This document shows positions 1 through 55,645 of a stretch of 64,000 bases of DNA, piece after piece. The notes beneath the pieces were generated by a model. It had not been told where the DNA came from. It saw nothing but the letters and a program-made list of their open reading frames with translations, and ran no database searches. Positions within the stretch are counted from its first letter, which is position 1; every line of letters begins with the position of its first letter. Made by a program: the position numbers and the translations under genes. Location: NCBI GenBank assembly GCA_036339465.1, contig JAYZAY010000026.1, positions 19,789 to 83,788 on the forward strand. Direction: 5' to 3'. This stretch comes from Myxococcota bacterium (GTDB lineage Bacteria; Myxococcota; XYA12-FULL-58-9; JABJBS01).

Positions 1-3000
1 AGATCTGCCTCTCTCCAAAACACACACCAAAATTTTTCGTCACCATGGGCGCCACTAAATTGTGGTCGGGAGCACCATCACAATCATTATCGAGGCCATC
101 GCAGGATTGTTCATTCAATTCATAAGTCGCAAAAAGAACCGCGTAGGGAGGTTCCATCCAAGTTATCTGACCAAACGAATTCTCTATACACACCTTCCTT
201 GCCCCCGAACAGACCCCCTCCTGAAGACTTGCCCGTGGTGCGAGCAGATGCTCGGATTCATCCACTCGACCATCACAATCGTTATCGAGGCCGTCACAAG
301 TCACTTCCTGAGGCTCATAGTTGGCAATATCTTCGAAATCTGGCGCTATCCAGATCTTCTGAATACTGTCACACTCCATTTTTTGAGTTTTACACACGCC
401 CACCGTATTGGCGTCGGGGCGTTTATCAAGGGCGATATTGTCGGTGGTGCCATCACAGTCATTGTCTAAACCGTCACAACTTATTTCTTCCTCTTCATAA
501 AGAAAGTTGCCATTGACATCCTTGATCAACTTATAATTCGGATTCACCCAAATGGGATTTCCCTCCTCATCCACACCACAGACTTTCCTATGGCCCGCAC
601 AAACCCCCACGTTTAAGTCATTCATGGGGCTGTGATTGACGAGGTCACTTGCCTCATCTGCACTACCATCGCAATCATTGTCCAAGCCATCACAGAGGGT
701 TTCAGAATCCTCATAATCGGGCAGCGTATAATAATTAGGTTCGATCCAATTCTTGACCCCATCCCCCGAATCACCGCATCGCTTCTTCGACATGACAGAG
801 CACACCCCCACAGTTTTTTCTGCCTTGGGTGCAGAAAGGTCGATACCTTCATCGGTGCTCCCATCACAATCATTGTCGAGACCGTCGCATATGGTCTCCA
901 CCGACTCGTAAATCATTTCGCCGTCTTCATCGCGAATAAAATTGTAGTCTGGGTCGATCCAACCCGTTCCTTGACCATTGCCAAGGGCCCCACAGAGTTT
1001 CTTTTGCCCCACACAAATACCATCCTGGAAGGACGCATTGGGACGAAAATCTTCCAAATCCTCATCCACTTGTCCGTCGCAGTCGTTGTCCAAACCGTCG
1101 CATAGGGTCTCCACGGGCTCGTAGAGCTCAATGCTCAAAAGATTGGGTTCTTGCCACCGATTGTCCCCTGCACAATATTTTCTCGAATTTTGGCACACAC
1201 CTTTTTGATTTTGGGCCAGAGGTTTGTCCAAATCTTCATCCACAACATCATCACAGTCGTTGTCGAGACCATCACAAGTTGTTTCATCGGCTTCATAAGC
1301 AACCACAGTCGCCAAATAGTCGGGATCCATCCAACCACTAACACCTCGGCAAACTTGGCGCTGCCCCAAACACTGCCCTGATTGTTTGGTCGCAAATGGA
1401 GTATCCACATAACCTGCCTCTCCGGAAATCGGGCAATCGATCGTGGATACGGAATCGCCGGGGGGCCGGTCGTGAAAAGTCCCACTTCCTGCTAAACATT
1501 CATCGACCAAACCATCGCAATCATTATCCACGCCATCGCAGAGGGTCTCGCGTATCTCATAGTTGTCAATTTCAAGGTAGTTGGGATCTTGCCACTGATT
1601 AATGCCCGCACAAATCTTGGTCGCCCTCGCCGCACATACACCCAAAGTCTTACTTCCAGCCGGAGCGTCTTCAGTGGATGCAAGGTTGTCGGCTGTGCCA
1701 TCACAATCGTTGTCGAGGCCATCACATCGGGTTTCTGTGATTTCGAATACATTATCAGAAACCGTAATGAAATAATCCGGTTCTACCCAAGTATAGTTTC
1801 CGACCTCATCCAATCCACAGTATTGACGCTGTCCTTCACAAACCCCGTCTTGCTTGGAAGACAATGGTCGATAGGGAGCAAGTTTAGGCGGATCATCCAC
1901 CGTTCCATTACAATCATTGTCCAAGCCATCACAAAGCGTCTCGGTTTCCTGGTAAACCAAATCGAACATATTGTAGACAGCTGGCGCATAGACAGGCTCA
2001 TTCCATTGCCAACCACTGCCCCCATCACTCCCACATTCTTTCCGAACTCCCTTACACACCCCCAACTGTTGGGTGGATAAAGGCAAGTCTGTGATATTGT
2101 CCACCACACCATCACAGTCATTGTCTAAACCATCGCAGGAAACTTCAGCGAATTCATAATCGGCGATGGTAGCCAGGGTGGGCTCTTGATAAACACCATT
2201 GCGACACACCTTTTTCGAATTCAAACAAGTACCTTTTTGGTTCGTGCCTAAAACCAGTAAATACTCATCGATGTTGTCAATCACCCCATCACAATCATTG
2301 TCGACACCATCACAAGAAATCTCCAACACCTCAAAGCTCACGGTGTGGTTCAAATAGGTGGGTTCGCGCCACATGGTGATACCGTCTCGGGTCTCACAAA
2401 CCTTCTTAGCACCATTACAGACCCCCTTCGAATTGTCTGCTTCAGGTCCAATCAGATCTTCATCCGTATCTCCATCACAATCATTGTCCAAGCCATCACA
2501 CAAAGACTCATTGGGCTCATAATTAGGAAAGGCCGTGTAGTCGGGCTCCAACCAATTTCCGTTTTCACAAACCTGCTTCGCAGTGATACACACACCAGCA
2601 GCTCTGTCTCCTGCCGCCGCAGTCACCGCCACACTGGATTCATCAATCTCGCCGTCGCAGTCATTATCCTCACCATCGCATGTACGTTCTGACACTTCAT
2701 AACCGGAAATATTATCCACCGGGAGATCTTCCCATGTTCCGGCATTACAACTCTGCAATTGATTCTTGCACACCCCACTTCTCAAACCAGGCTCGGGTTT
2801 TTGCTGTACCAACCCTTCGTCATACACCCCATCGCAATCATCATCTACCCCATCGCATTTGTCGCAGTCTGCGACCCCATCACATGACTTCGGTTCCAAT
2901 TCAGGCAGCGCGTTTTTATGACTGTCACACAAAAGAGTCCGCTGATCCTCCCCACAAATAACGCGGCCGCCCCCACACAACCCAACCCCACACGACATAC

Positions 3001-6000
3001 CCTTTGTTAGGCCACTGTCACCATTGGAGTCTGTAAAAGTCCCCACACAGTCTTCGGTCAGGCAAGTCTCGGTGCCAAATTCCGCCGCGGAGATATAGGG
3101 ATCATCGACCACCCCATTACAATCGTTATCGAGCTCATCACAAAGGGTTTCCGTTTCTTCATAATCGGGGAGCACTGTATAATCCGGCTCTTTCCAGGTA
3201 CCCGATACATTGTCACAATACTTCCTCTGGTCATGACAGACCCCATATTGCATCGCCGCCAACGGACGTTGCTCACTGTTTAAGGCCAGGTTATCCACAA
3301 TACCGTCACAATCATTGTCGAGGCCGTCACAGGAAATTTCTATTTCTTCATAACCTGCCACCAAAGCGACGTAATTTGGTGTAATCCAAGTCTTAGAAAC
3401 GGAATCACATACTCTCTTTTGCCCCGCACAAACCCCTACCCCCAAGGCATCGGGCCTAGAATCCAAAGCAATCTCGTCGATATCCCCATCACAATCGTTG
3501 TCCAAGCCATCACAGGAAACTTCCACCACTTCGTAGTTTGCCAAAGAAGCGAGATAATCAGGCTCAATCCAAGTCTTGGTGCCGTCGTCGTCTAGGCCAC
3601 ATACCCGCTTGGCACCTGCACAAACACCCACATTTTTAATGGCGTTGGGATAGAGCAGCTTGTCCTGACTCAAATTATCAATCAGCCCATCACAGTTGTT
3701 GTCCAAACCGTCACAGAGAGTCTCTTGGGGCTCATAGGTTTGAATGGCCAGGGTATAGTCTGGCTCATTCCATTTCTTAAGTGCCGAATCGCATTCCATT
3801 TTCTGCCCAGAACAGACCCCACTGGCCGCAGCATTGGGGCGATGCTCTACGAGAATATTGTCGATCATACCATCGCAGTCATTGTCCAAGCCATCACAGC
3901 TTGTCTCAGGCATTTCGTAGCCGTCGACGGTGACGTTATAGGTTGGGTCAATCCAAGTCTTAATACCATCGCTGTCGGTACCGCAGATCTTTTTGGCACT
4001 GGCGCATACCCCCGTGGCTTTGGTGGCCATAGGGTGCTGCTCTACGCCCTGTGACAAGTTATCAATCACCCCATCACAGTTATTGTCGAGACCGTCACAC
4101 AGGGTTTCAGACGCCTGATAACTCGCAATGGCCAAGGCGTAATCAGGCTCTTCCCAAGCCTTCTCTTCCGAATTACACACCATTTTCTGCCCCCCACACA
4201 CACCACTGGTCGCAGCATCGGGACGGCTCTCACTCAAGATATTATCCACCACCCCATCACAATCATTGTCCAAACCATCACAACTGGATTCAGACACTTC
4301 GTAATCCACCACCGTCACCCCGTAATCAGGCTCCACCCAGGTCTTGACACCATCCAAGTTGGTGCCACAAACCTTCTTAACGTCGGCGCAAACCCCAACC
4401 ACCATTTTCGCCGAAGGATAGAGCGTTGGAGCTTGCTGTAAATTGTCCACCACCCCATCACAATCGTTATCCAAACCATCGCAAAGGGTTTCGGATGCCT
4501 GATAGGTTGCGATGGCCAAAGCATAGTTAGGCTCTTCCCAACGGGTCTCTTGGGTGTTGCAGTCCATTTTCTGCCCCACACACACACCACTGGTGACCGC
4601 ATCCGGGCGGTTGACACTAACAATATTGTCCACCACGCCATCGCAATCATTGTCTAAGCCGTCACAACTCATTTCCGAAGCTTCGAAATTAACCACCGTC
4701 ACGCTGTAATCGGGTTCCGACCAAACCTTCTCGCCATTTTCGTTGGCAGCACAAACTTTCTTGGCATCCATGCAGACACCAATTTTTTTGGTGGCCGATG
4801 GATAGAGAGAAGCAACCTGCGACAAATTATCCACCACCCCATCACAATCATTGTCCAAACCGTCACAAAGGGTTTCTGCGGCTTCATAGGTAGAAACTGC
4901 CGCGGCGTAATCGGGTTCTTCCCAAGCCTTTAAGCCACTATTGCATGACATTTTGCGACCAGCACATACGCCGCTGGTAATGGTCTCAGGGCGATTCTCA
5001 TTGATAATATTATCCACCACCCCATCACAGTCGTTGTCCAAACCATCGCAACTGGTCTCAGTGGCTTCGTAGTTGATAACTGTAAGTGCATAGTCAGGCT
5101 CGATCCAGGTCTTCAAACCATCCTCGCCGAAGCCACATACCTTTTTCAAACCGCTACAAACCCCAGAAGCTCGTATGGCCTGGGGATGTTCATCCGTGGG
5201 CTGTGATAGGTTGTCAACCAATCCATCACAATTGTTATCGAGACCATCACATTTGGTTTCCGCTGACTGGTAGCTCGCAATCGTCAAGGAATAATCCGGC
5301 TCTACCCAAGCTTTTTGCTCACTGTCGCAAACCATCTTCTGGCCCACACACACACCAGTGCTCACTGCATCCGGACGATCGGCCTTTAGGATATTATCGA
5401 CTAAGCCATCACAATCATTGTCCAAACCATCACAGAGGGTTTCAGTCCCCTGGTAGGTGGTGATGGCCACCGCATAGTTGGGCTCTTCCCAGGTTTTTTG
5501 GTTCAGATTACAGACCATTTTTTGCCCCACACACACGCCACCCACAGCAACCACCGGGCGATTGGCCTTGATTATGTTATCGACTCCCCCATCACAGTCA
5601 TTATCCAAGCCATCACAAACAGTTTCTGAAGATTCGAAATCCAAAATGACATCAGCATAGTCGGGTTCAACCCAAGTCTTATTACCCTCACCGTCCTCGC
5701 CACAAACCTTTCTTACCTCAGAGCAGACCCCCGCATTCTTAATGGCCTGGGGATAAGAGTCGGCATCCTGAGACAAATTATCAACCAACCCATCACAGTT
5801 GTTATCGAGACCATCGCACAAGGTCTCATCCGTCTCGTAGCTGGGGATAGCCACGGCATAGTCTGGTTCTTCCCAAGTTTTTAGGGCACTGTTGCAGACC
5901 ATTTTCTGGCCCACACACACACCACCCACAGACACATCCGGGCGGTTGCCCCTAAGGATATTGTCTGCCGTTCCATCACAGTCATTGTCCAAACCATCGC

Positions 6001-9000
6001 AGATCGTCTCTATGGGTTCGTAATTTGGGACAGCATCTTCGTAGTTGGGATCGAGCCAGACCTTCAAACCAGTGTCGCCCGTGCCACATACTCTTTTAAC
6101 ACCAGCACAGACCCCAACTTTTTTTGTGGCCAGAGGATAGGTATCCACCGTCTGGGATAAATTATCCACCACGCCATCGCAGTTGTTGTCTAAACCGTCA
6201 CAAAGGGTTTCTGATGCCTCATAGGAACCAATACTCAAACTATAGTCGGGTTCTTCCCAAGATTTGCTATCACTATCGCAAACCATTCTCTGCCCCGCAC
6301 ACACGCCTCCAGCAGAAACCACCGGTCGATTGGCCTTAAGGATGGTATCAACTGCACCATCGCAGTCATTGTCCAAACCGTCACAGATGGTTTCGACCTC
6401 TTCGTAGCCAACAACCACATCACCATAAACAGGGTCAAGCCAAGCCTTCAAACCATTGTCGCCCGTGCCACAGATTTTCTTCACGTCGGCACAAACCCCG
6501 ACCCTTTTTGTGGCCTGGGGATACCCATCCACAGCCTGAGACAAATTGTCTACCACACCATCGCAGTTGTTGTCTAAACCGTCACAAAGGGTTTCTGATG
6601 CCTCATAGGAACCAATACTCAAACTATAGTCGGGTTCTTCCCAAGATTTGCTATCACTATCGCAAACCATTCTCTGCCCCACACACACGCCTCCGGCAGA
6701 CACCACCGGACGATTGTTATTCGCAATGTTGTCGACAATACCGTCGCAATCATTGTCCAAGCCATCACAGAGGGTTTCGACCTCTTCATAATTCAAGACA
6801 ACATCACCATAAACGGGGTCAAGCCAAGCCTTCAAACCATTGTCGTCGGTGCCACATAGCCTCTTAACACCCGCACAAACCCCTACCTTTTTCGTGGCCG
6901 CAGGATAAGCGTCCTGGTCCTGGGATAAATTATCCACCACCCCATCGCAGTTGTTATCGAGCCCGTCGCAAAGCGTTTCGGCCGCCTCATAGGTGCCAAT
7001 TGCCAAACTATAGTCGGGCTCCTCCCAAGCCTTGGTCACGCTATTGCAGGCCATCTTCTGACCGGTGCAAACACCACCGGCGGTCACATCGGGTCGATCG
7101 GCTTTAATAATATCATCCACGGTGCCGTCGCAATCATTGTCCAAACCATCACAGAGGGTTTCTTCCTCTTGGTAACCTACAACAACATCACCATAGACCG
7201 GATCAAGCCAGTCCTTCTCTCCACTCTCGTCGGTGCCACACACTCTCCTAACAGTGGCACAAACCCCAACCCTTTTTGTGGCCTGGGGATAAGCATCTCC
7301 AGCTTGGGACAAATTGTCCACCACCCCATCACAGTTGTTATCCAAACCATCACAGAGGGTTTCTGACTCTTCGTAAGTTGAAATCGACAAACTATAGTCA
7401 GGCTCTTCCCAGGCTTTACTAGCACTGTTGCAAACCATTCTCTGACCCACACAAACACCACCAGCGGTGACGAGGGGACGGTTTGCCTGAATCATGTTGT
7501 CGGCCACACCATCGCAGTCATTGTCTAAACCATCACAGATACTTTCGACCTCTTCGTAATTTGAGATGACATCCCCATAAACCGGATCAAGCCAGACCTT
7601 GGTTCCATTCTCGGCCTCCCCACAAATTCTCTTAACATCGGCACAAACTCCCACCTTTTTGGTGGCCGCAGGATAAGCCCCCGCTTCCTGGGATAAATTG
7701 TCCACCACCCCATCGCAGTTGTTGTCCAAGCCATCGCAGAGGGTTTCAGCCGCTTCATAGGAGGGAATGGCCAAGCTATAATCCGGCTCTTCCCAAGCTT
7801 TGTTCTCACTGTTGCAAACCATTTTCTGACCCACACACACCCCACCCCCAACAACATCCGGACGATTGGCCTTGATGATATTGTCAACGAGTCCATCGCA
7901 GTCATTGTCTAAACCATCACAAATGCTTTCGACCACTTCATAATTGACCACCGCATCACCATAGTCGGGATCAAGCCAGGCCTTCTTACCAGTCTCATCC
8001 GTCCCGCAAATTCTCTTAACGACCGAACAAACACCGACCTTTTTCGTGGCCGCGGGATAGGCATCAGCTGCCTGAGATAAGTTGTCCACGAGCCCATCAC
8101 AATTGTTGTCCAAGCCATCACAAAGGGTTTCTGATGCCTCATAGGTGAGAATCGCCAAACCATAGTCCGGTTCTTCCCATGCTTTTGCCACTGAATTGCA
8201 GACCATTTTCTGACCCACACAAACACCACCCGCGCTTACCTCCGGGCGATTCGCCTTGGCGATATTGTCAACCAGACCATCACAATTATTGTCTAAGCCG
8301 TCGCAGATTGTTTCTTCTATTTCGTAATTTAGGACAACATCGCCATAATCGGGGTCAACCCATGTTTTCGTACCGTTTTCATCCGTGCTGCACACTCTCT
8401 TAACATCAGCACAAACGCCCACCTTTTTCGTGCCTTGGGGATAATCATCGGTGGACTGGGATAAATTGTCCACCACTCCATCACAGTTGTTATCCAACCC
8501 GTCACAAAGAGTCTCAGAGGCCTCATAGGTGGCAATCGCCAAAGCGTAGTCAGGTTCTTCCCACGTTTTAAGGAGACTATTGCAAATCATTTTCTTGCCC
8601 ACACAAACACCACCACTGGCAACGGTGGGGCGGTTATCCTTCCCAATATCGTCCACAATACCATTGCAGTCATTATCCAAACCATCACAGATGGTTTCCG
8701 CTACTTCGTAATTAAAAACGGAATCACCATAGTCTGGGTCAATCCAGGTTTTTGAACCATGGACATCCGTGCCACAAACCTTCCTTACATCCGCACAAAC
8801 ACCCACCTTCTTTGTTGCCTGGGGATATGAGTCCGGAGTCTGAGACAAGTTGTCCACCACCCCGTCACAGTTGTTGTCCAAGCCGTCACAAAGAGTTTCC
8901 GAATCCTCATAGTCCCCAATCAAAACACTATAATCAGGTTCCACCCAGGCCGTTAGGCCGCTGTTGCAAACCATTTTCTGGCCCACACACACACCACTGC

Positions 9001-12000
9001 TCGATACCTGTGGGCGATTTTGTAAAGCGATATTGTCGACCACCCCATCGCAATCATTATCCAAACCATCACAGCTCAGATCCGATTCCTCATAGGTTGC
9101 CACTTCCAAAGCATAGTCCGGCTCAATCCAGGTTTTATCCCCATTCTCATTGGTTCCACATAACTTTCTTATATCGCCACAAACACCAGACGTCTTACTT
9201 GCCAGAGGATATTGATTCGGCAACTGCAATAGATTATCAACAACACCATCACAATCATTATCCATACCATCGCAATAGGTTTCCGACACTTCGTAATTAG
9301 CGACAGACTCAGAGTAATCCGGATCCACCCAGGTTTTAATACCATTCTCATCTGTAGCGCATATTTTTCTCACATTGGCACAGAGGCCAGAAATTTTTGT
9401 TGCGAGTGGGTAGAGTTCTTTGGACTGAGATAAATTATCGACCACACCATCACAATTATTGTCTAAGCCGTCACAGAGGGTTTCTGATGATTCATAAGAA
9501 GAAATAATCAAGCCATAGTTGGGTTCTTCCCAGGTTTTCAGAGCCGTATTACAAACCATTTTCTGGCCCACACACACTCCACTCGCCGCCACGTCGGGAC
9601 GATTCTGCGTCATAATATTGTCGATAACGCCGTCACAATCATTGTCCAAACCATCACAGCTTAATTCCGGTGACTCAAAATTAATCACTGTCACCCCGTA
9701 GTCCGGATTGACCCAAGTCTTTTTGCCATTCTCGTCGGTGCCGCAAACTTTCTTTGCATCCGCACAAACACCAACGTTTTTAGTAGCCGCTGGGTAGAGC
9801 TCCACCGCTTGAGAGAGATTGTCCACCACCCCATCACAGTCGTTATCCAAATCATCACAAAGGGTTTCTGAAACCTGGTAACTCGCAACAGATATGGAAT
9901 AGTCCGGTTCAATCCATTTGGTTTCCGCGCTATTACAAACCAATTTCTGCCCCGCACATACACCACTGTTGGCTGCAAGGGGACGATTGGCTGCAATAAT
10001 GTTATCGATCGCACCGTCGCAATCATTGTCCAAACCATCACAGCTCATCTCTGATTCCTCGAATTTTTCGACGAACGTCCCAAAGTCTGGATCAACCCAA
10101 GTTTTAACACCAGCATCGTTGGTACCACATACCTTCTTTGCCCCCACGCACACACCGACACTCTTGGTCGCCACAGGATAGAGGTCCACAACTTGGGATA
10201 AATTGTCGATCATTCCATCGCAATTGTTGTCCAAACCGTCACAAAGGGTTTCTGATGCTTCATAGGTAGCAATGGCCAAAGCATAGTTTGGTTCTTCCCA
10301 ACGGGTTTCGCCGCTATTACAAACCATTTTCTGGCCGGTACAAACCCCGCTATTTGCCGCATCGGGACGGTTCTGCGAAACGATATTGTCCACCACGCCA
10401 TCGCAATCATTGTCTAAACCATCACAACTCATCTCCGATGCTTCAAAGTTTGCGACATTCGTACCATAGTCCGGTTCAATCCAGGCCTTGTTACCACTGG
10501 CATTGGTCCCACAAGCTTTTTTCGTCCCCACACAAACACCGATATTTTTCGCTGCCGTTGGATATAGATCGGCGACTTGGGAAAGATTATCGATCATCCC
10601 ATCGCAATTGTTATCCAAACCATCACAAAGAGTTTCCGCCGCCTGATAGCTCACGACAGTCAATGCGTAGTTGGGTTCTTCCCAAACTTTGCCGGCCGTA
10701 TTACAAACCATTTTCTGGCCATTACAAACACCACTGGTGGCAGCGTCAGGCCGGTTGTCATGAACAATATTGTCCACCACCCCATCACAGTCGTTGTCCA
10801 AACCATCGCAACTTTTTTCCTCCAGCTCGAAATTTACAACCGTCACGCCATAGTCGGGGTCGATCCAAGCCTTGGTACCACTGTCTAAACCACAGATTTT
10901 TTTAACGCCCGCGCAAACACCACTGGACTTGGTTGCTGCTGGATAAAGGCCAACGTCTTGCGACAGATTATCGATAACCCCATCGCAGTTGTTATCTAGC
11001 CCATCGCACAGGGTCTCGGCGGCCTGATAGGAGGTGATTGCTAGGGCATAATTGGGTTCATCCCAACGGGATTCATCACTATTACACTCCATTTTCTGCC
11101 CCGCACATACCCCACTTGTAACCGCACTGGGACGATTCCCTGTGATGATATTGTCCACCACCCCATCACAATCATTGTCTAAATTATCACAGCTTTTTTC
11201 TGACGATTCGTAATTTGGGACGGTTACGCCATAATCAGGATCGATCCAATTTTTGTCGCCATGCTCGTCGGTGCCACAAATTTTTCGAACACCGGCACAA
11301 ACACCGATATTGCGCGTTGCCAAAGGATGTTGATCCACAGTTTGGGATAAATTGTCGACCACCCCATCGCAGTTGTTATCCAATCCATCACAGAGGGTCT
11401 CAGCGGCCTGATAGGTTGGTATCGCCAATGAATAATTGGGTTCGTCCCAACGAGAAGCGCCGCTATTGCATTCCATTTTTTGTCCCACACACACACCACT
11501 GGTGACAGCATCGGGACGGTTTCCAGTGATAATATTATCGACGACCCCATCACAATCGTTGTCCACATTGTCACAGCTCTTCTCCGACGCTTCATAAGTC
11601 TGAACCGTGACGCCATAGTCTGGGTCCACCCAATCCTTCTGACCCAATGCGTTGGTTCCACAAATTTTTCGAACATCAGCACAGACCCCAATATTTTTGG
11701 TGGCTAGGGGATGCTCGCTTGTGGGTTGGGATAAGTTATCCACCACCCCATCACAGTTATTGTCCAAACCATCACAGAGAGTTTCAGATGCCTGATAGGT
11801 GGCAATAGACAAAGGATAGTCCGGTTCCTCCCAAGCCTTAAGGGCTGTATTACAAATCATTTTCTGGCCCACACACACACCACTGGTCGCTGCGTCCGGG
11901 CGATTGACCTTGACAATATTATCTACGATACCATCACAATCATTATCCAACTCATCACAGCTAACCTCAGGCGATTCGTAATTTGGCACCGTAACCACAT

Positions 12001-15000
12001 AATCCGGTTCAACCCAAGCCTTGTCTCCATTTGGAAGGGACCCACAATCCTTCTTCACATTGAGACAAACCCCCACCTTTTTGTCGGCATCTGGAAAGGT
12101 TGTACTGTCTTGGGTTAGATTGTCGACGAGGCCATCACAATCATTATCCAAGCCATCACAGAGCGTTTCTTCGACCTCATAGGTTGGTATATCCGTGTAA
12201 TTTGGGTTGACCCACACTGCTCCACCCTCAGCATCAACACATGATTTACGCAAAACAGAACACACCCCTGCGCTCTTGTCTGCATGGGGTCTAAACCCTT
12301 CGGCAATCACATCCACACTGCCATCACAATCATTGTCTAGGTTGTCACAGGTCTCTTCTTGATGTTCGTAACCACCGGTGTGTTTCGCGGTTCCTATCCA
12401 AGCCGGATCACGCCACTGTCCATTGGCACATTCCTGTCGATAACTGTTGGTTAGACATACCCCGAAAGGCGTCGACACTAAGGGTCTGTCCGCTTCTGCA
12501 ATTTCATCGATTAACCCGTTACAGTCGTTATCCAAACCATCGCACGTCTTTTCAATCGCTTCATAACCCACCACCTCCGAATCGACCCAATCGAAGGTAA
12601 TATTCCCAAAGCCATCATCGCTTGACCGGCAAAGCTGCTTTTCATTGGCACAAACCCCACTGTTTCCCAAGGTCACTTGGGGCTTGGACACATTGGCAAT
12701 ATCGTCGACGGCACCGTTGCAGTCATTGTCTTTACCGTCACAAGTAATTTCTTCCAACTCGTAATTTTCCGTATTGGTAAAAGTTGGGTCCTGCCACCCG
12801 AGTGCACTCCGACACAATTTCTTTAGGCCAGTGCAAACGCCCACTGATTTGGAAGAGGACGGCCTCTCAAAATATTGAGCGGTACCTGGCGCTGGACACG
12901 CACTCCCATCTCCTTCGGTGGTAACATCCTCCACCAAACATTCATCGGTTTTACCGTCACAGTCGTTGTCTAAGCCATCGCAACCTTGCTCCTTATCCTC
13001 ATATTGCAACACCGAAGAAAAGGGCAGCTGCACCCAAGCACCACCGTCACATGTGTTTTGGACGGTTAAACAAACACCATTTCTCATTTCCGCCGGAATC
13101 GCCGCCTTTTCATCATCCGTAAGAGGTTCGTAGAGACCATCACTTACAGCACCATCACAATCATCATCCACAGAATCGCAAATATCACAATCGTCCACGC
13201 CATCGCAGCTCTTCGGGATTTTCTCACTCCGGATAAGGCCGTGAGAGTCACACTCCAAACTAATTTTATTGGCTGCACAAACGACCGACCCTCCAGCACA
13301 TAATCCGGACCCACAACCCATCTCTTTGTACAAATCCGTGGTGCCGTTAAGAGCATCGGTCATAGGAGCGCCGGAAGGAAACACGAAGGGGTCATCAACA
13401 ACACCATCGCAGTCATTGTCTAAACCATCACAAGAAACCTCGATCTCTTCATAATCGACGCCATAGTTGGTGGGGTCTTTCCATCCATTGCTTCCGTCAC
13501 AAGTTTGTCGCACGGTGGCACATACACCGTCCTGCATGGCTGCAAAAGGTGTGCTGGCTTCAGGGATCTGATTATCCACCAAACCATCGCAATTATCGTC
13601 GATGCCATTACAGGATTCATTCAATGAATAGGCAGGGATGGAGCTATATACATTTTCCCAATTGTAGACGCCTCCTCCTAGGTTTACACAAGATTTGCGT
13701 TGGCCTAAACACGCACCCGTATTATTGGTAACAAAGGGCCTATTGCTCGTGGCAATATTGTCCACATCACCATCACAATCATTATCGAGACCGTCACAAA
13801 GTGTTTCTTGTGCTTGATAGTTTTCTACCAGCGCCGTGCTAGGGTCAATCCAGCCAAACGCCCCTTGGCAAATTTGCTTTTGTTCCGAGCATACGCCCTG
13901 GGATTTCGTCGCCGGAAAAGGTTTACGTATTTCAGAGCAGGCAACCAAAGCACCTTCAACACTGTAGTCCTTTTCCTCTCCGGATTCATTTAAGCACTCA
14001 TCAACCAAACCATCACAGTCATTGTCTAGACCGTCACAAATCTCATCGATATTATATCCGGCAACCAATGTGTAATTCGGTTCAACCAAGGCACCGTTAT
14101 CGCAAACTTTTTTCTGATTGGCGCATACCCCATCCTGCTTATCGGCATCGACGATAACAATGTCTGGGTCATCGGTGTCGGTCAATCCATCACAATCGTC
14201 ATCGAGGCTGTTACAAATTTCAGCCGTAGCCGCAATATCGTTAATACATACTGGTTCACCACTCTGACAATCATAATTTCCACGAGCGCAACTGTCTAGG
14301 TCAGCGCCGGAATCACAGGCGGTCGAAAACTCAGGGGTCAGGGCCAAATCGTCCATCTCGTCGACATCGCCGTCGCAGTCTTCGTCAAGGGTGTCACAAA
14401 GGAGCTCTTTACCAGGCACAAATTTTGGATGATTCGGAGAGCCCCTTAGGAGCGATTCGTCGCATTGAAGGAGTTCTCCATTGACGCAATATTTATACAC
14501 GCCTTTACAAACTCCCGAATCTTCTCCGGTGACCTCCAACGAACAAAGCCCGTAGCTCTTGGCGTCTTTCGTAAACTCATACGCAAGTCCCAAGGTGGGA
14601 TTGTCATCGAGCGGGTCTTCATCAATAATGCCATTGCAATTGTCATCTAGGTTGTTACATTCCTCCGGGTTGGCGCCATACAAAGCAAGTTTTTCTTCCG
14701 CCACCGATAGGGCATTACAAACAGACTTTGTCTTATCACTGTGGCAAACCGTAATACCCGTCGCCACACACGGTGAATTAGGATACACCGAGCAAACCTG
14801 GTTCAAATCAAAAATAACCTCTTCTCGGGTCGATACGTTGCAATCATTATCTATCCCGTCACAGAGCTCTTCGAAATTTTCGTTCTCATCGCAGTATTTC
14901 CCCAGCTGCTCGGTACATGCCCAAATGCCATTCTCGCAGTGGTCGGAATCCTCGGAATCACATCTTGTTCCCAATTCAGGATAGTGCTCATCGGTTAAGC

Positions 15001-16672
15001 CATCACAATCATTATCTTTACCATCGCAGGGCATGTCGCCAATTTCATCGACTGCATAAGAGATCCCCCCCAGTAAGGTATAGTCGGGATTGGCCCATCC
15101 ATTAACCCCATCGCAAACCTTGTACACACCGTTGCACTCACCTTGTTGCTTATCCGCTAAGGGTCTGTTTTGTGCCACATTGAGTCCGTTATCCTTCGCA
15201 CCATCACAGTTGTCGTCCTTTCCATTGCAAACCTCAGGCGCACCTGGATAGATGGTAAGATCACTGTCGTCACAATCGGTTCGGCAATCAAAAGTATCAT
15301 TATCAAAATCGGTTGGATTCTGTGGGTCACACACCCCAGGCCCAGAAGCAGCAGCCGCGTTATTGGCGGGTTGTGCAGAAGCAGTTTCCTTGCTTTGTGG
15401 TTGGTGTGTCCCTGCGTGGGTTAACAAGACCCCCACAGGATCAACATGGGTTTGAATCGCCCCCAAACCCGAGGTGTATTCCGAAAACTTCTTTTTCCAC
15501 TCTATGCCAAAGCTTTGAACTCGAGTGGCTACCTCGTGGTCGTATGCATCCGAAAAGCGCCCATCTGAAATTAAGACAAATCCAATTTTAATGGTTCGGT
15601 TGGCAATAGAACCTGCCCTAGGCAATCGTTCACCCAACTGCGCCACAAAATCCCCGAGTTCTATTTCTTCAAACCTATCATCTGAAATGCTAATTTCAGT
15701 GGCCAAACTCATATGGCACTGATTCAATTCTCGCTGTTCATCGGCGCTCAACTCGGCGAAACCCGCATCTGAGAGATATTGAATCGGCCCAATCTCAAAG
15801 CTCTCCTTCAGCCCCATAGCGTAAAGGTCTAAGTCGCTATAATGCCATTCACCCCAGAGTTCCTCACTCGAGACCCTCTCTTGCTGCCCATAGGTTAGCA
15901 CCCAATTTCGTCCACCCATGAGCGAACCACCCGAGTGAAGTCGGCCACTCCAGCCCGCAGACGAACGACAAAGCAAACTCTGAGAATCGTTGGGATCGGT
16001 GGTGAAGCTTCCCAACCAGCGCTCTCCCAATAACCGGCCCATTAGGGGGTATATATCGGGATTTTCGTGGAGCTTGAGATCAAAGGTTTCCCATGCCTCC
16101 ACGTCAAACAGATTGATCACACCTTGTAGTCTTCCCTCGCTCCCGTAGAGGTCCTGAATATTGAATTGGCGTTTGCCTATTCCGAATGTGTCATTTTGTA
16201 CCCCGCAATAATAACCATTCCCTCCGCACTCACTGCGCTGAGGAAAGTTGGTGAACATCACTAAGAAATCAAAATTGTCGCCGTATTCGTCCAAAACCAA
16301 TTTCGAAGCCTCACGAACACCGGATTGCTCCAAGCAATCAGCTGATTCTCGTCCGCAGAGATTGGTCAATGGGAGCAACTCACCGCCACAAACCTCCGAC
16401 ATCAACACACCTTCGCACAAAACTCCTGAATCACGGAGCGCGTGTATCACGATGACATCAGTTTCAGGAGCGAGTGAAACTTGGGCTAAGGAATCCGAAA
16501 CTGAAGATTCCGATAATCGTATCTCTTCTACTTTCAATTGATTGGGAAAATCGGCATTAAACATAGAGATGCCTGCCGGCATGGGGAAATAACCACCCGA
16601 ACTCGCCCAAAGTGACGAAACTACCCCCACAAAGCTCACTAAAAATAGAGCGATAATAATTCGCCTGTACAT
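1..16672 (-). CDS. Giant secreted Cys/Asp-rich repeat protein (MopE-type putative metal-binding repeats, N-terminal zincin-like domain); 3' end lies beyond the window, at least 5557 aa
   Basis: Manual translation from ATG 16672 gives MYRRIIIALFLVSFVGVVSSLWA (signal peptide). A canonical DCDDSDLTIYPGAPEVCNGKDDNCDG motif follows near 15200-15280, then dozens of CDGLDN(D/N)CDG modules. The same frame was confirmed by spot checks near 15060, 14400, 6360-6790, 2640-3120, 420 and 2-100. Its absence from the ORF track fits there being no in-frame stop inside the window. Confidence 0.93.
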   Translation of the reverse strand, partial: MYRRIIIALFLVSFVGVVSSLWASSGGYFPMPAGISMFNADFPNQLKVEEIRLSESSVSDSLAQVSLAPETDVIVIHALRDSGVLCEGVLMSEVCGGELLPLTNLCGRESADCLEQSGVREASKLVLDEYGDNFDFLVMFTNFPQRSECGGNGYYCGVQNDTFGIGKRQFNIQDLYGSEGRLQGVINLFDVEAWETFDLKLHENPDIYPLMGRLLGERWLGSFTTDPNDSQSLLCRSSAGWSGRLHSGGSLMGGRNWVLTYGQQERVSSEELWGEWHYSDLDLYAMGLKESFEIGPIQYLSDAGFAELSADEQRELNQCHMSLATEISISDDRFEEIELGDFVAQLGERLPRAGSIANRTIKIGFVLISDGRFSDAYDHEVATRVQSFGIEWKKKFSEYTSGLGAIQTHVDPVGVLLTHAGTHQPQSKETASAQPANNAAAASGPGVCDPQNPTDFDNDTFDCRTDCDDSDLTIYPGAPEVCNGKDDNCDGAKDNGLNVAQNRPLADKQQGECNGVYKVCDGVNGWANPDYTLLGGISYAVDEIGDMPCDGKDNDCDGLTDEHYPELGTRCDSEDSDHCENGIWACTEQLGKYCDENENFEELCDGIDNDCNVSTREEVIFDLNQVCSVYPNSPCVATGITVCHSDKTKSVCNALSVAEEKLALYGANPEECNNLDDNCNGIIDEDPLDDNPTLGLAYEFTKDAKSYGLCSLEVTGEDSGVCKGVYKYCVNGELLQCDESLLRGSPNHPKFVPGKELLCDTLDEDCDGDVDEMDDLALTPEFSTACDSGADLDSCARGNYDCQSGEPVCINDIAATAEICNSLDDDCDGLTDTDDPDIVIVDADKQDGVCANQKKVCDNGALVEPNYTLVAGYNIDEICDGLDNDCDGLVDECLNESGEEKDYSVEGALVACSEIRKPFPATKSQGVCSEQKQICQGAFGWIDPSTALVENYQAQETLCDGLDNDCDGDVDNIATSNRPFVTNNTGACLGQRKSCVNLGGGVYNWENVYSSIPAYSLNESCNGIDDNCDGLVDNQIPEASTPFAAMQDGVCATVRQTCDGSNGWKDPTNYGVDYEEIEVSCDGLDNDCDGVVDDPFVFPSGAPMTDALNGTTDLYKEMGCGSGLCAGGSVVCAANKISLECDSHGLIRSEKIPKSCDGVDDCDICDSVDDDCDGAVSDGLYEPLTDDEKAAIPAEMRNGVCLTVQNTCDGGAWVQLPFSSVLQYEDKEQGCDGLDNDCDGKTDECLVEDVTTEGDGSACPAPGTAQYFERPSSSKSVGVCTGLKKLCRSALGWQDPTFTNTENYELEEITCDGKDNDCNGAVDDIANVSKPQVTLGNSGVCANEKQLCRSSDDGFGNITFDWVDSEVVGYEAIEKTCDGLDNDCNGLIDEIAEADRPLVSTPFGVCLTNSYRQECANGQWRDPAWIGTAKHTGGYEHQEETCDNLDNDCDGSVDVIAEGFRPHADKSAGVCSVLRKSCVDAEGGAVWVNPNYTDIPTYEVEETLCDGLDNDCDGLVDNLTQDSTTFPDADKKVGVCLNVKKDCGSLPNGDKAWVEPDYVVTVPNYESPEVSCDELDNDCDGIVDNIVKVNRPDAATSGVCVGQKMICNTALKAWEEPDYPLSIATYQASETLCDGLDNNCDGVVDNLSQPTSEHPLATKNIGVCADVRKICGTNALGQKDWVDPDYGVTVQTYEASEKSCDNVDNDCDGVVDNIITGNRPDAVTSGVCVGQKMECNSGASRWDEPNYSLAIPTYQAAETLCDGLDNNCDGVVDNLSQTVDQHPLATRNIGVCAGVRKICGTDEHGDKNWIDPDYGVTVPNYESSEKSCDNLDNDCDGVVDNIITGNRPSAVTSGVCAGQKMECNSDESRWDEPNYALAITSYQAAETLCDGLDNNCDGVIDNLSQDVGLYPAATKSSGVCAGVKKICGLDSGTKAWIDPDYGVTVVNFELEEKSCDGLDNDCDGVVDNIVHDNRPDAATSGVCNGQKMVCNTAGKVWEEPNYALTVVSYQAAETLCDGLDNNCDGMIDNLSQVADLYPTAAKNIGVCVGTKKACGTNASGNKAWIEPDYGTNVANFEASEMSCDGLDNDCDGVVDNIVSQNRPDAANSGVCTGQKMVCNSGETRWEEPNYALAIATYEASETLCDGLDNNCDGMIDNLSQVVDLYPVATKSVGVCVGAKKVCGTNDAGVKTWVDPDFGTFVEKFEESEMSCDGLDNDCDGAIDNIIAANRPLAANSGVCAGQKLVCNSAETKWIEPDYSISVASYQVSETLCDDLDNDCDGVVDNLSQAVELYPAATKNVGVCADAKKVCGTDENGKKTWVNPDYGVTVINFESPELSCDGLDNDCDGVIDNIMTQNRPDVAASGVCVGQKMVCNTALKTWEEPNYGLIISSYESSETLCDGLDNNCDGVVDNLSQSKELYPLATKISGLCANVRKICATDENGIKTWVDPDYSESVANYEVSETYCDGMDNDCDGVVDNLLQLPNQYPLASKTSGVCGDIRKLCGTNENGDKTWIEPDYALEVATYEESDLSCDGLDNDCDGVVDNIALQNRPQVSSSGVCVGQKMVCNSGLTAWVEPDYSVLIGDYEDSETLCDGLDNNCDGVVDNLSQTPDSYPQATKKVGVCADVRKVCGTDVHGSKTWIDPDYGDSVFNYEVAETICDGLDNDCNGIVDDIGKDNRPTVASGGVCVGKKMICNSLLKTWEEPDYALAIATYEASETLCDGLDNNCDGVVDNLSQSTDDYPQGTKKVGVCADVKRVCSTDENGTKTWVDPDYGDVVLNYEIEETICDGLDNNCDGLVDNIAKANRPEVSAGGVCVGQKMVCNSVAKAWEEPDYGLAILTYEASETLCDGLDNNCDGLVDNLSQAADAYPAATKKVGVCSVVKRICGTDETGKKAWLDPDYGDAVVNYEVVESICDGLDNDCDGLVDNIIKANRPDVVGGGVCVGQKMVCNSENKAWEEPDYSLAIPSYEAAETLCDGLDNNCDGVVDNLSQEAGAYPAATKKVGVCADVKRICGEAENGTKVWLDPVYGDVISNYEEVESICDGLDNDCDGVADNMIQANRPLVTAGGVCVGQRMVCNSASKAWEEPDYSLSISTYEESETLCDGLDNNCDGVVDNLSQAGDAYPQATKRVGVCATVRRVCGTDESGEKDWLDPVYGDVVVGYQEEETLCDGLDNDCDGTVDDIIKADRPDVTAGGVCTGQKMACNSVTKAWEEPDYSLAIGTYEAAETLCDGLDNNCDGVVDNLSQDQDAYPAATKKVGVCAGVKRLCGTDDNGLKAWLDPVYGDVVLNYEEVETLCDGLDNDCDGIVDNIANNNRPVVSAGGVCVGQRMVCDSDSKSWEEPDYSLSIGSYEASETLCDGLDNNCDGVVDNLSQAVDGYPQATKRVGVCADVKKICGTGDNGLKAWLDPVYGDVVVGYEEVETICDGLDNDCDGAVDTILKANRPVVSAGGVCAGQRMVCDSDSKSWEEPDYSLSIGSYEASETLCDGLDNNCDGVVDNLSQTVDTYPLATKKVGVCAGVKRVCGTGDTGLKVWLDPNYEDAVPNYEPIETICDGLDNDCDGTADNILRGNRPDVSVGGVCVGQKMVCNSALKTWEEPDYAVAIPSYETDETLCDGLDNNCDGLVDNLSQDADSYPQAIKNAGVCSEVRKVCGEDGEGNKTWVEPDYADVILDFESSETVCDGLDNDCDGGVDNIIKANRPVVAVGGVCVGQKMVCNLNQKTWEEPNYAVAITTYQGTETLCDGLDNDCDGLVDNILKADRPDAVSTGVCVGQKMVCDSEQKAWVEPDYSLTIASYQSAETKCDGLDNNCDGLVDNLSQPTDEHPQAIRASGVCSGLKKVCGFGEDGLKTWIEPDYALTVINYEATETSCDGLDNDCDGVVDNIINENRPETITSGVCAGRKMSCNSGLKAWEEPDYAAAVSTYEAAETLCDGLDNDCDGVVDNLSQVASLYPSATKKIGVCMDAKKVCAANENGEKVWSEPDYSVTVVNFEASEMSCDGLDNDCDGVVDNIVSVNRPDAVTSGVCVGQKMDCNTQETRWEEPNYALAIATYQASETLCDGLDNDCDGVVDNLQQAPTLYPSAKMVVGVCADVKKVCGTNLDGVKTWVEPDYGVTVVDYEVSESSCDGLDNDCDGVVDNILSESRPDAATSGVCGGQKMVCNSEEKAWEEPDYALAIASYQASETLCDGLDNNCDGVIDNLSQGVEQHPMATKATGVCASAKKICGTDSDGIKTWIDPTYNVTVDGYEMPETSCDGLDNDCDGMIDNILVEHRPNAAASGVCSGQKMECDSALKKWNEPDYTLAIQTYEPQETLCDGLDNNCDGLIDNLSQDKLLYPNAIKNVGVCAGAKRVCGLDDDGTKTWIEPDYLASLANYEVVEVSCDGLDNDCDGDIDEIALDSRPDALGVGVCAGQKRVCDSVSKTWITPNYVALVAGYEEIEISCDGLDNDCDGIVDNLALNSEQRPLAAMQYGVCHDQRKYCDNVSGTWKEPDYTVLPDYEETETLCDELDNDCNGVVDDPYISAAEFGTETCLTEDCVGTFTDSNGDSGLTKGMSCGVGLCGGGRVICGEDQRTLLCDSHKNALPELEPKSCDGVADCDKCDGVDDDCDGVYDEGLVQQKPEPGLRSGVCKNQLQSCNAGTWEDLPVDNISGYEVSERTCDGEDNDCDGEIDESSVAVTAAAGDRAAGVCITAKQVCENGNWLEPDYTAFPNYEPNESLCDGLDNDCDGDTDEDLIGPEADNSKGVCNGAKKVCETRDGITMWREPTYLNHTVSFEVLEISCDGVDNDCDGVIDNIDEYLLVLGTNQKGTCLNSKKVCRNGVYQEPTLATIADYEFAEVSCDGLDNDCDGVVDNITDLPLSTQQLGVCKGVRKECGSDGGSGWQWNEPVYAPAVYNMFDLVYQETETLCDGLDNDCNGTVDDPPKLAPYRPLSSKQDGVCEGQRQYCGLDEVGNYTWVEPDYFITVSDNVFEITETRCDGLDNDCDGTADNLASTEDAPAGSKTLGVCAARATKICAGINQWQDPNYLEIDNYEIRETLCDGVDNDCDGLVDECLAGSGTFHDRPPGDSVSTIDCPISGEAGYVDTPFATKQSGQCLGQRQVCRGVSGWMDPDYLATVVAYEADETTCDGLDNDCDDVVDEDLDKPLAQNQKGVCQNSRKYCAGDNRWQEPNLLSIELYEPVETLCDGLDNDCDGQVDEDLEDFRPNASFQDGICVGQKKLCGALGNGQGTGWIDPDYNFIRDEDGEMIYESVETICDGLDNDCDGSTDEGIDLSAPKAEKTVGVCSVMSKKRCGDSGDGVKNWIEPNYYTLPDYEDSETLCDGLDNDCDGSADEASDLVNHSPMNDLNVGVCAGHRKVCGVDEEGNPIWVNPNYKLIKDVNGNFLYEEEEISCDGLDNDCDGTTDNIALDKRPDANTVGVCKTQKMECDSIQKIWIAPDFEDIANYEPQEVTCDGLDNDCDGRVDESEHLLAPRASLQEGVCSGARKVCIENSFGQITWMEPPYAVLFATYELNEQSCDGLDNDCDGAPDHNLVAPMVTKNFGVCFGERQI
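3480..12150 (-). repeat. Intragenic tandem array of alternating 183-bp (61 aa) and 201-bp (67 aa) modules, 384-bp super-period, about 45 modules
   Basis: CDG motif positions recur at 5790, 5973, 6174, 6357, 6558, 6741 and so on. Shadow ORFs in the track repeat with 384-bp offsets (4315/4699, 6124/6508, 7525/7909). Confidence 0.9.
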
Positions 16673-18040: not shown

Positions 18041-18653
18041 GGGCGATATCCGCCTCCGTCCCCGAACCCCACGTTACCATGGACACCCTCGACTTAAAGG
18101 CTCGATTCGTTCGATAAAGTCGGGCCAAAACATGCCATATCCCCACCGCGTAATCGTAGGTCAGGTTCCGAGGCAACCTCGCCACCACCAAGATCCCATC
18201 CCGTCCCGGATTCTTGAGTTCGGTCGGTTCAATCTCCTTGACCAACCCCAGTAGTTTCCGCGAAAATTTCGCCCCCTTCGCATCCTCCAGCGCGATCTCA
18301 ACCGTCGCCCCTTCACCACCTGCACTGTCGGCATGTGCCAAAATCACACTTCCCTCAACCACATCCACAAGCACTCGGTGTCGCTGTTGTGAATCTCCCA
18401 TGTCCAAAACACCGCCGGCTACCGGTAAATTTTCAACACCTTTACCACTGGAATTTTCTTTCGCTTCTTGAAAACTCGCAAAAAGAGACGTCACCATAAA
18501 AAAGAGCAAAAGACTCAAAGCAACATCATCAAAACTGGTTGCCGCCTCTTCCTCTTGCAAGACATCATCATCTTCGTAAAGACTAAGATCTTCCTCAAGG
18601 TCCTCTTCCCAGGGATTTGTCTCTTCCTCTGTAGCTTCACCTTCACCCATCAA
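18033..18653 (-). CDS. ExbD/TolR family motor subunit
   Basis: Acidic N-terminus and a single TM TSFDDVALSLLLFFMVTSLF with the ExbD-type Asp; directly downstream of ExbB/ExbD homologues. Confidence 0.75.
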   Translation of the reverse strand: MMGEGEATEEETNPWEEDLEEDLSLYEDDDVLQEEEAATSFDDVALSLLLFFMVTSLFASFQEAKENSSGKGVENLPVAGGVLDMGDSQQRHRVLVDVVEGSVILAHADSAGGEGATVEIALEDAKGAKFSRKLLGLVKEIEPTELKNPGRDGILVVARLPRNLTYDYAVGIWHVLARLYRTNRAFKSRVSMVTWGSGTEADIAHE

Positions 18654-18658
18654 AATAA

Positions 18659-19363: not shown

Positions 19364-20449
19364 TCACGCCCCGCCTTGACGCATGTGTGCCGACACCTCA
19401 CTGGAAATCAGTTGAAGTTGGGTCGTGAAAAAATTGATCCGCTGGGAAATCCCCGATTTTAATGCCAATCCCACGGATTTGATAATCAAGGCCATAAAAG
19501 TGGTTACGAGGGCCACAAAAATACCCTGGGACATCATATTGATCATCTCCGGCGAGGCATTCTCCCCCAATAAACTAAAAGCCACAATCATCCCCTGAAC
19601 CGTTCCTGCAAAACCCACCGCCGGCGCAACATTCAAGGCCGTATTGATCAGATGCATCTTTTGAAACTCTTCTTCTCGAATATCCTTGGTCTGAGCAATG
19701 AAGTACCGATCAAGGGCCGTCTCCGAAGCAAGAACAGATCCACCAATTTGCTTTACCACTTCGGCCAAGTGGTTATCCAACCCCAAAAGAACACCCATGT
19801 CTTCATCACGAAATTTGGCATCCTCCCAAAGCGTCGCCCGTTCTTTCCCCTGGGCTTTAAAGGCTAAAAGAAGCTTGTTCTCAACATATTCGACATGGTC
19901 ATCATGCATGTAGAAATTCTCTTGTCGAACTGTCCAAAGGATGTAAATCCCCGACAACGCCATTGCGAAAAGGATATAGAGTCCCGACATCATAATATAT
20001 TCTAAGACGTCTCCAAGAATGGTTTGGCTAGACATGGGGTCGCCACTATCGCCGGCGGCCTCTTCCGGAACCGTTTCAGGCACCGCCGGCTCTTCTTTCG
20101 CCGTTTTTTCTCCGTCCTCCTCCGCAGCAAAAGCAACGCTACTAAAAATCCAATCCATTTGAAGAAATTGGTTCTGAGCAGTTTTCTTGGAAACATGTCC
20201 CCGGGCATCGGCTTCATCAATCTCCCCTTGCTTGGGATTGGCAATCATGGTTGCGAGCTGTTTGGCCTTCAGAGGATTCACAAAAGATCCCGTCACGAAT
20301 TTTCCCAAAACCGATGTCGCCATGAGTAGAGCCACGGTTAGAATGGCAACCCAATACCATTGAATCAGGCCTTGTTGCTTGAGAACATCACGTCGACGGG
20401 ATTCATAAACTCCCGCCTGCTTCTTTTTGCTATCATCTCCCATTATCAA
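19364..20449 (-). CDS. MotA/TolQ/ExbB proton channel family protein
   Basis: C-terminal motifs APAVGFAGTVQGMIVAF and GIFVALVTTFMALII match the ExbB/TolQ TM2-TM3 pattern; extended N-terminus. Confidence 0.85.
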   Translation of the reverse strand: MIMGDDSKKKQAGVYESRRRDVLKQQGLIQWYWVAILTVALLMATSVLGKFVTGSFVNPLKAKQLATMIANPKQGEIDEADARGHVSKKTAQNQFLQMDWIFSSVAFAAEEDGEKTAKEEPAVPETVPEEAAGDSGDPMSSQTILGDVLEYIMMSGLYILFAMALSGIYILWTVRQENFYMHDDHVEYVENKLLLAFKAQGKERATLWEDAKFRDEDMGVLLGLDNHLAEVVKQIGGSVLASETALDRYFIAQTKDIREEEFQKMHLINTALNVAPAVGFAGTVQGMIVAFSLLGENASPEMINMMSQGIFVALVTTFMALIIKSVGLALKSGISQRINFFTTQLQLISSEVSAHMRQGGA

Positions 20450-42850: not shown

Positions 42851-42863
42851 AATTCAGTTCTCC

Positions 42864-43583: not shown

Positions 43584-43584
43584 C

Positions 43585-54486: not shown

Positions 54487-54532
54487 CTAAATTCCTCAAC
54501 CCGAATTGAAATAATTATTGTTCCGCTTGCTC

Positions 54533-55027: not shown

Positions 55028-55030
55028 TTG

Positions 55031-55633: not shown

Positions 55634-55645
55634 AAAAAACGTGTT

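Follow-up and report, generated by a model that had tools for sequence, protein, structure and literature searches.

The window analysed here is a 64,000-nucleotide stretch of the genome of a Myxococcota bacterium (G000; contig JAYZAY010000026.1, hereafter C26, positions 19789-83788, such that a window position equals the C26 position minus 19788), taken from an assembly of 4.17 Mb in 102 contigs that is 92.8% complete. Its left end is occupied by one minus-strand gene that encodes a giant protein of Cys-rich modules. The initial annotation had proposed a continuous minus-strand frame of at least 5557 amino acids (aa) from position 16672, and had named in-frame stop codons as the finding that would split it. 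We found 0 stops in the 5557 codons of the reverse complement of positions 2-16672, compared to 556 and 167 in the other two minus frames. Extended past the window, the frame stops 1823 bases to the left, so that the whole gene spans C26:17966-36460 (-), 18.5 kb, and its product has 6164 aa (662 kDa; isoelectric point ~4; 370 Cys). No other open frame in the genome is as long. The window's open reading frame (ORF) list shows this frame only as open-ended, reaching the window edge, and it was therefore dropped by the closed-ORF track; in that sense the gene had been missed, as claimed, but a public gene caller did predict the entire 6164-aa protein, which is in the protein collection as P0155. 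A G-rich ribosome-binding-like site lies immediately 5' of its start, and it begins with the signal peptide that had been anticipated. The protein is most likely a giant surface adhesin and takes a known, scarcely studied design to an extreme.

We examined whether the frame behaves as coding sequence. Eight of its 128-codon repeats share identities of 0.84, 0.83 and 0.54 at codon positions 1, 2 and 3, respectively, and comparison with four seawater runs yielded 25 single-site differences in the gene (16 synonymous, 8 missense and 1 nonsense), against an expectation from random changes of 21.5% synonymous (transition bias uncorrected). Thus, given the third-position divergence among repeats and the synonymous excess, the giant frame is under coding selection. 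The stretch or part of it is present in 20 seawater metagenome rows from 11 studies, with at least half of its words in three; the four compared runs (of 22 listed) covered 29-30 of 30 bins, with no indels listed, and no contig from these four runs spans the whole giant gene. It is unlikely that the repeat copy number is an assembly artefact, since DNA identity between repeats is only 59-83% and exact duplication is limited to ~120 bp (64 repeated 60-mers); this exact repeat probably falls between modules 44 and 46. A split gene or artefact was considered and ruled out by the zero stops, the full 6164-aa frame, the repeat divergence and the substitution pattern. A recent foreign island was also considered and gains no support from composition, with G+C content overall (0.489) and at third codon positions (0.49) at genome values. 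A promoter scan gave nothing exceeding chance. We conclude that this is a genuine gene and that the genome carries it intact.

Most of the protein is a stalk of modules with the form CDGLDN(D/N)CDG, mostly followed by a GVC-x6-7-C hairpin, and W-x2-P-D-Y. The estimate of roughly 80 modules with four Cys apiece was close to what we counted: 82 motif matches, 78 of them in the window, with four Cys in 70 of the 81 inter-motif units, six in nine, eight in one and ten in one. The stalk is rich in Asp and Glu (19.5% together) and Cys (6.7%) and poor in His (0.5%) and Met (1.0%). Its assignment to the MopE-related repeat was borne out by PF11617, which had 73 matches genome-wide, 65 of them in the giant ORF, and scored 117.9 bits on aa 1-1000, over the gathering cut-off. 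Just one of the 65 is full-length; the other 64 begin at model position 7-15, and thus mainly the second half of PF11617 is matched. The alternation of unit lengths in the core (modules 16-61) has two breaks and one 66-aa unit. Modules with 6 to 10 Cys (10-12; 63-64, 71) flank this core, and because such unusual modules recur on both sides, we read them as a possible sign of an older block duplication. Searched against a collection of genome contigs, the stalk repeat matched 40 loci at 24-37% identity, none near enough for an orthologue. A second MopE-repeat gene is interrupted by a contig end (C78:1-5777), and several further Cys-rich frames of 1500-3500 aa lie on C68, C70, C4 and C82.

The initial annotation had also called the protein very long for its repeat family. 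In a search restricted to proteins of 3390-10787 aa, we found 90 other MopE proteins (3393-6338 aa), 15 of them at least 5000 aa, 22 with at least 50 modules and one with 85, and the protein described here ranked second of 91 by both length and module count. Thus, the claim holds as to rank, and the length sits at the top of the known range, not beyond it. The protein shares CDGxDNxCDG repeats with the PF11617 "MopE-related" giants of Myxococcota and other groups, which reach 6338 aa and 85 modules, but differs from them in its W-x2-P-(D/N)-(Y/F) modules (52 copies, compared to at most four in any of 210 other proteins examined), in its regular 61/67 alternation and in its head domain, which is absent from all 90 other giants.

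The head belongs to an unnamed family with an HExxH-x22-H motif, which we take to be the signature of a zinc protease. The family resembles metzincins (leishmanolysin, ADAM, archaemetzincin) in its HExxH, third His, Met-turn-like motif and weak fold likeness, but this head lacks the zinc ligands and the catalytic Glu, and no Pfam or NCBIfam model matched aa ~100-410, nor did the sequence have a relative among solved structures. All four catalytic and zinc columns are lost, with R213, L214, E217 and G240 replacing H, E, H and H, though M286, the Met in the LDLYxMG motif, is retained and the scaffold is conserved. In the best 150 of the 1013 relatives found among cluster representatives, the four columns held H in 112 and Q in 35 (a change of the first His in about a quarter), E in 146, H in 148 and H in 148; all four residues were present in 110 of these relatives and three in 38, one was a fragment short of the site, and one, P0058, had none. 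P0058 (6133 aa) carries Q, Q, Q and Y instead (aa ~187-220), and because it lost the four residues by different changes, the alignment suggests that it and this head were inactivated independently. The head is most likely a catalytically dead, protease-like domain. Its profile, with at most 7 candidates scored in each genome, matched 60 of 201 genomes of the phylum, but the other 21 members of the order gave no match. At least 4000 aa is the length of 47 of the best 150 relatives, with MopE motifs in none of the 47, and three long relatives that were scanned carry CARDB and immunoglobulin-like (Ig-like) domains. The HExxH-x22-H family heads many secreted proteins of 4000-7000 aa (for example P0022, P0025 and P0033), and in the giants scanned there are CARDB and Ig-like domains as well as prenyltransferase-like (thioester-domain-like) parts.

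The initial annotation had pointed to a MYXO-CTERM signal or a beta-barrel as possible C-terminal ends, and both are present in tandem. The internal tag has a Gly-rich part, Cys5803, a helix (5812-5825) and R5826 and R5828, such that the tripartite MYXO-CTERM pattern (Cys signature, helix and basic cluster, the last being short) occurs together with the N-terminal signal peptide. The hydrophobic segment that follows, although under the 1.6 hydropathy threshold, aligns in position with AxA-ending segments of fused relatives. The barrel matched the N-terminal part of NF033763 (positions 35-277; E 1.1e-5; 23.6 bits, far below the TraB cut-off of 700) and PF13557 (E 0.028). It is followed by a single D-x-D-x-D-G motif, which we take to be TSP3-like, and the chain then ends, 24 aa past the barrel, with no OmpA domain and no PF00691 match on C26. 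A fragment from another strain (P0249; 96% identical, six substitutions in 163 aa) stops at the same residue. Since the next gene follows 13 bases on with its own ribosome-binding-like site, and P0249 has the same end, the OmpA-less end is genuine. A frameshift masking OmpA was considered and rejected: the other frames past the stop contain a different gene, and the P0249 end is identical.

A search of 61 genomes, this one among them, found barrel relatives in 46. Among ten longer barrel-bearing frames taken from these relatives, nine share the same junction (Gly/Cys motif, helix, basic residues, second hydrophobic stretch, AxA, barrel), all nine have an OmpA-type end, and three of the nine carry MopE repeats (19-29 modules). 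Among the 90 other giant MopE proteins, 5 have the barrel as well, and two further fused MopE giants have a 160-aa tail without OmpA. In a barrel tree of 24 rows, with fused status read from the junctions by eye, the giant's barrel is a long, unplaced branch, and the tree therefore does not fix the number of fusion events. Several side observations concern these relatives. L015, L016, L018, P0180 and P0184 group as one clade of MopE proteins (3700-4770 aa) that have both the internal tag and the barrel; in two of them, another C-terminal domain replaces OmpA. L014 (G052; 5034 aa) and L017 (G029; ~2990 aa) are internal-tag barrel-OmpA giants with different adhesin regions, and both are flanked by what are presumably ftsA-like and ftsZ-like genes, names we recognised from sequence, which is the arrangement reported for MXAN_5598. 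That such genes occur in genomes of the same phylum, and that the present genome has MYXO-CTERM genes and a myxosortase-family gene, is in keeping with its reading as Myxococcota. The genome itself has a stand-alone barrel plus OmpA gene (C56:61310-63286; 658 aa), a highly divergent paralog of the giant's barrel.

This C-terminal layout has one worked counterpart. According to the available portions of PMC11980579, MXAN_5598 of M. xanthus is an atypical fusion of adhesin, tag, barrel and OmpA, like TraA plus TraB, for which processing at the internal tag has been proposed; it also appears in a vesicle/membrane proteomics table in the part of PMC4158809 available to us. The giant resembles it in having a large N-terminal adhesin region, an internal MYXO-CTERM-like tag and a barrel in one frame, but lacks OmpA, has a MopE-type stalk and a dead protease-like head, and lies by ExbB/ExbD genes rather than between ftsA and ftsZ. 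To the TraA/TraB pair, as far as the accessible text of PMC3325183, PMC6626042 and PMC12045341 describes it, the likeness is in the succession of head, Cys-rich stalk, tag and barrel with TSP3-like motif, whereas here one gene encodes ~82 modules of another repeat family, with no PA14-like head, no OmpA and a barrel far below the TraB family cut-off. The giant would work like the MXAN_5598 fusion, but fails strict membership of TraB and of the OmpA-bearing form.

We think it probable that the gene encodes a two-product precursor. One product would be a fibre anchored by lipid, whose disulfide-braced, probably calcium-stiffened stalk ends in a non-catalytic binding tip, and the other a barrel in the outer membrane. 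Sec would export the N-terminal part until the internal MYXO-CTERM helix stops transfer; Cys5803 would be lipidated, and a myxosortase would cut behind it, releasing a lipid-anchored fibre of ~5800 aa. The genome does encode a myxosortase-core protein (NF040914, 115 bits; cut-off 100; short of the equivalog cut-offs for MrtP, MrtC and MrtX), and two ordinary MYXO-CTERM genes in it exceed the TIGR03901 cut-off. The hydrophobic segment past the tag would act as a second signal peptide, and the barrel would thereby be set free as an outer-membrane protein of its own, produced in a 1:1 ratio to the fibre, whose base it probably holds. The 82 disulfide-braced acidic modules would form the rod proposed by the initial annotation, probably stiffened by Ca2+ and perhaps 200-300 nm long, an estimate that assumes ~3 nm per module. 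At its tip, the dead protease fold may grip a protein or peptide ligand with no cutting. Since a barrel without OmpA would not by itself be tied to the cell wall, the job of the fibre would be long-range adhesion rather than outer-membrane exchange. The portions of PMC12045341 at hand (citing Balagam 2021) describe a comparable case, in which TraB without OmpA is still an adhesin with TraA but is not active in exchange (other sources: PMC3278476; 10.1101/2023.11.21.568195; 10.1101/2023.06.07.544157). What the analysis shows is the ORF, the order of its domains, the lost catalytic residues, the end without OmpA and a myxosortase-family gene in the genome; processing, metal, length, ligand and localisation are inferred.

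Several observations weigh against this two-product precursor. The tag scored 12.2 and 16.7 bits with TIGR03901, for which the cut-off is 20. The head's structure model is confident (predicted local distance difference test, pLDDT, 82.5), but its likeness to metzincins is weak, with several at Z 3.2-4.5 and none at 5 or more; its best Z, 4.7, was with an unrelated aminopeptidase, and Foldseek with this model returned nothing at E<=0.001. The "protease-like" label thus rests mainly on the motif. A four-module stalk model was uninformative (pLDDT 48) and matched no solved fold. In one contig of one seawater run (X1; depth 3.8) codon 4293 carries a nonsense change; another run (X6) has the reference base there, and single low-depth differences were flagged as possible errors. 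Finally, we did not find a type II secretion operon in the assembly, and MYXO-CTERM proteins of M. xanthus depend on this system, according to the part of PMC11980579 available. The single secretin is a 1720-aa PilQ-like protein in a pilMNOPQ-like operon (C67:17576-25611), whereas every one of the other 21 order genomes has at least two secretin matches. With tblastn, the gspC and gspG-N-like genes from four relatives, named from order and sequence, found no match here; the relatives' gspD/E/F-like queries matched only pilus paralogs, and GspK had no match over cut-off. Because the assembly is 92.8% complete and in 102 contigs, one operon can be missing from it.

The giant gene is the 10th of 11 tightly packed minus-strand envelope genes, in the order lipoprotein, 195-aa membrane protein, three exported proteins, ExbB, two ExbD-like proteins, lipoprotein, giant and second lipoprotein (Table 1). 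Genes in the run are separated by a few bases or overlap, with 39 nt 5' of the giant and 13 nt 3'. The first and last genes of the eleven are paralogous; for the lipoproteins they encode, Atlas points to an NlpC/P60 fold while Pfam gives no match, and by eye the catalytic Cys and His, from what we take to be the NlpC/P60 motif, are seemingly absent in both. Both ExbD/TolR-like proteins contain the membrane Asp motif SFDDVA in alignment, and ExbB aligned to TolQ retains the Thr of GTV and that of the third transmembrane segment (TM3). The 382-, 538- and 803-aa proteins start signal-peptide-like, and the last two have no solved relative; the 195-aa protein has an acidic, proline-rich tail, and might on this reading be TonB-like. 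Upstream of the eleven, at a distance of 12 bases and on the same strand, is a PilZ gene that may be part of the run.

Table 1. Features of the giant gene and its run (window positions unless C26 is given; C26 positions lie outside the window)
Feature	Position	Strand	Basis
Giant gene, in-window part (aa 1-5557 of 6164)	1..16672	-	Frame translation; whole protein is P0155
N-terminal signal peptide, aa 1-23	16604..16672	-	Sequence; hydrophobic windows start at aa 1-8
Head domain, aa ~100-410 (~310 aa)	15443..16375	-	Unnamed HExxH-x22-H metzincin-like family; 1013 relatives
Sole full-length PF11617 motif, aa 466-494 ("DCDD..PGAPEVC")	15191..15277	-	PF11617 match, model positions 1-29
Stalk, 82 modules (78 in window)	1..15229 and ~700 bases further left	-	Motif count, composition
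Regular stalk core, modules 16-61	3332..12160	-	Units of 67 and 61 aa alternate, giving a 128-aa higher-order repeat
Internal MYXO-CTERM-like tag, aa 5797-5828	C26 ~18977-19072	-	TIGR03901 below cut-off; junction layout as in relatives
Second signal-peptide-like segment, aa 5829-5857	C26 ~18890-18976	-	Ends VQA, predicted signal peptidase I site
TraB-like outer-membrane beta-barrel, aa 5858-6140	C26 ~18041-18889	-	NF033763, PF13557
Single TSP3-like D-x-D-x-D-G motif, then stop, aa 6144-6164	C26 ~17966-18031	-	Sequence
Downstream lipoprotein, NlpC/P60-like C-terminal domain	C26 16675-17952	-	Atlas features 0.92; structure rows point to NlpC/P60 clusters
Upstream lipoprotein, 442 aa	16712..18040	-	Ig-like, carbohydrate-binding-like leads only (Atlas <=0.89); no Pfam match
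Two ExbD/TolR-like genes, 206 and 230 aa	18033..19351	-	PF02472 E 0.01 and 0.004, below cut-off
ExbB/TolQ/MotA-type proton-channel protein with N-terminal extension	19364..20449	-	PF01618 E 1e-13
Four packed envelope genes, no known family: 382, 538, 803, 195 aa	20477..26202	-	No passing Pfam/NCBIfam match
Upstream lipoprotein at run start, paralog of downstream NlpC/P60-like lipoprotein	26205..27500	-	30% identity over 135 aa, E 2e-13

We considered that the run might be coupled to the fibre, with ExbB and the two ExbD-like proteins forming a proton-driven motor that pulls, moves or exports it, the TonB-like protein taking part and the two NlpC/P60-like lipoproteins gripping the cell wall in place of the lost OmpA. 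This would supplement the two-product precursor without excluding it, and we consider it unlikely. The eleven same-strand envelope genes with their tight gaps, the bracketing NlpC/P60-like paralogs and the retained channel residues fit such a motor, as does the set of one TolQ-type and two TolR-type proteins, which is the pattern of AglR/Q/S in the accessible text of PMC3169522. The Agl-Glt core complex (AglR/Q/S with GltC/D/E/G) likewise places these proteins among exported envelope genes, but family searches of the run proteins detected no TPR or TonB C-terminal domain, and this run stands beside a giant adhesin and has two NlpC/P60-like lipoproteins. Searches for relatives of the run gave little: a metagenome scan found one related 1.1-kb contig that keeps the ExbB-ExbD order at 82% identity, the ExbB query had weak generic matches in 3 of 21 order genomes, and the ExbD and NlpC-like profiles matched none of 300 other genomes (two-sequence profiles, with low sensitivity). 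The genome holds 13 ExbB/MotA-type matches, and such genes are therefore common. Any functional link between run and giant would rest on adjacency in this one genome.

A second possibility is that type II secretion has been lost and that the barrel translocates its own passenger in an autotransporter or two-partner manner, or that the type IV pilus secretin is used instead. The single secretin, the failed gspC, gspG-N-like and GspK searches and the presence of only two tags over cut-off (0-16 matches in other members of the order) would all agree with such a loss, but one operon can be missing from an assembly of this completeness, the junction helices imply cleavage before export, and neither TraA nor TraB needs the other to reach the outer membrane, according to PMC12045341. 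We regard self-export as improbable. The same low estimate goes to a more elaborate version, in which type II secretion is truly lost and the run is a dedicated proton-driven machine for one giant adhesin: ExbB and the two ExbD-like proteins would energise export or pulling of the 660-kDa fibre through or via the co-translated barrel, the two non-catalytic NlpC/P60 lipoproteins would replace the OmpA grip, and the dead metalloprotease would be the tip. If true, MYXO-CTERM proteins would have a system for export or traction that has not been described before.

It is very improbable that the gene is a decaying relic whose function went after the export system was lost. Three degenerate features (dead head, weak tag and lost OmpA), the nonsense allele in one contig and the missing type II operon could be read in this way, but 18.5 kb remain open, the substitutions and the repeats carry the mark of coding selection described above, the head scaffold is conserved though all four catalytic positions changed, and the C-terminus is identical in another strain.

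Two further readings are, in our estimate, the least probable. TraAB-type kin recognition with outer-membrane exchange draws on the TraA-like order of head, Cys-rich stalk and tag before a TraB-like barrel, and on the stand-alone barrel plus OmpA gene on C56; the giant itself lacks OmpA, its barrel scores far under the TraB cut-off, its head is not PA14-like, and its stalk would far exceed the 28-nm TraA dimer reported in the accessible portion of PMC12045341. A surface protein that scavenges copper or other trace metals, suggested by the PF11617 name (Cu-binding_MopE), the ~19% acidic residues and the marine habitat, is at odds with the scarcity of His and Met in the array, Cys pairs that suit disulfides, a Pfam description that says "putative", and a distal binding head and anchor that fit an adhesin.

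With the two-product adhesin as the preferred reading, the surprising parts of this protein are its dead head, the loss of OmpA and the unexplained export route, not its length. Published work describes the internal-tag fusion as rare, with MXAN_5598 the one worked example in the sources as available, but several families of the phylum have it. A natural copy without OmpA would separate adhesion from membrane exchange, as did the engineered deletion in TraB. The unnamed HExxH family, with more than 1000 clusters and often heading surface proteins of 4000-7000 aa, has a clear pseudo-enzyme member. With no type II secretion operon found in this genome, the route by which a MYXO-CTERM protein gets to the surface is a testable question. 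The accessible parts of the open literature on MYXO-CTERM/TraB, PF11617, giant adhesins and myxosortase contained no description of this protein or head family, and the literature search returned nothing on AglR/Q/S paralogs with an adhesin or on an inactive HExxH bacterial adhesin.

Other genes nearby and in the window were noted in passing. At its end, the gene run is met by a convergent 1496-aa ORF of no known family (L001:4145-8632, +). Farther along the window lie an ABC transporter cluster with an ABC_transp_aux auxiliary subunit beside a DUF4340 gene (41258-44577) and a chemosensory cluster with CheA, CheR and a HEAT-repeat protein (51032-57814).

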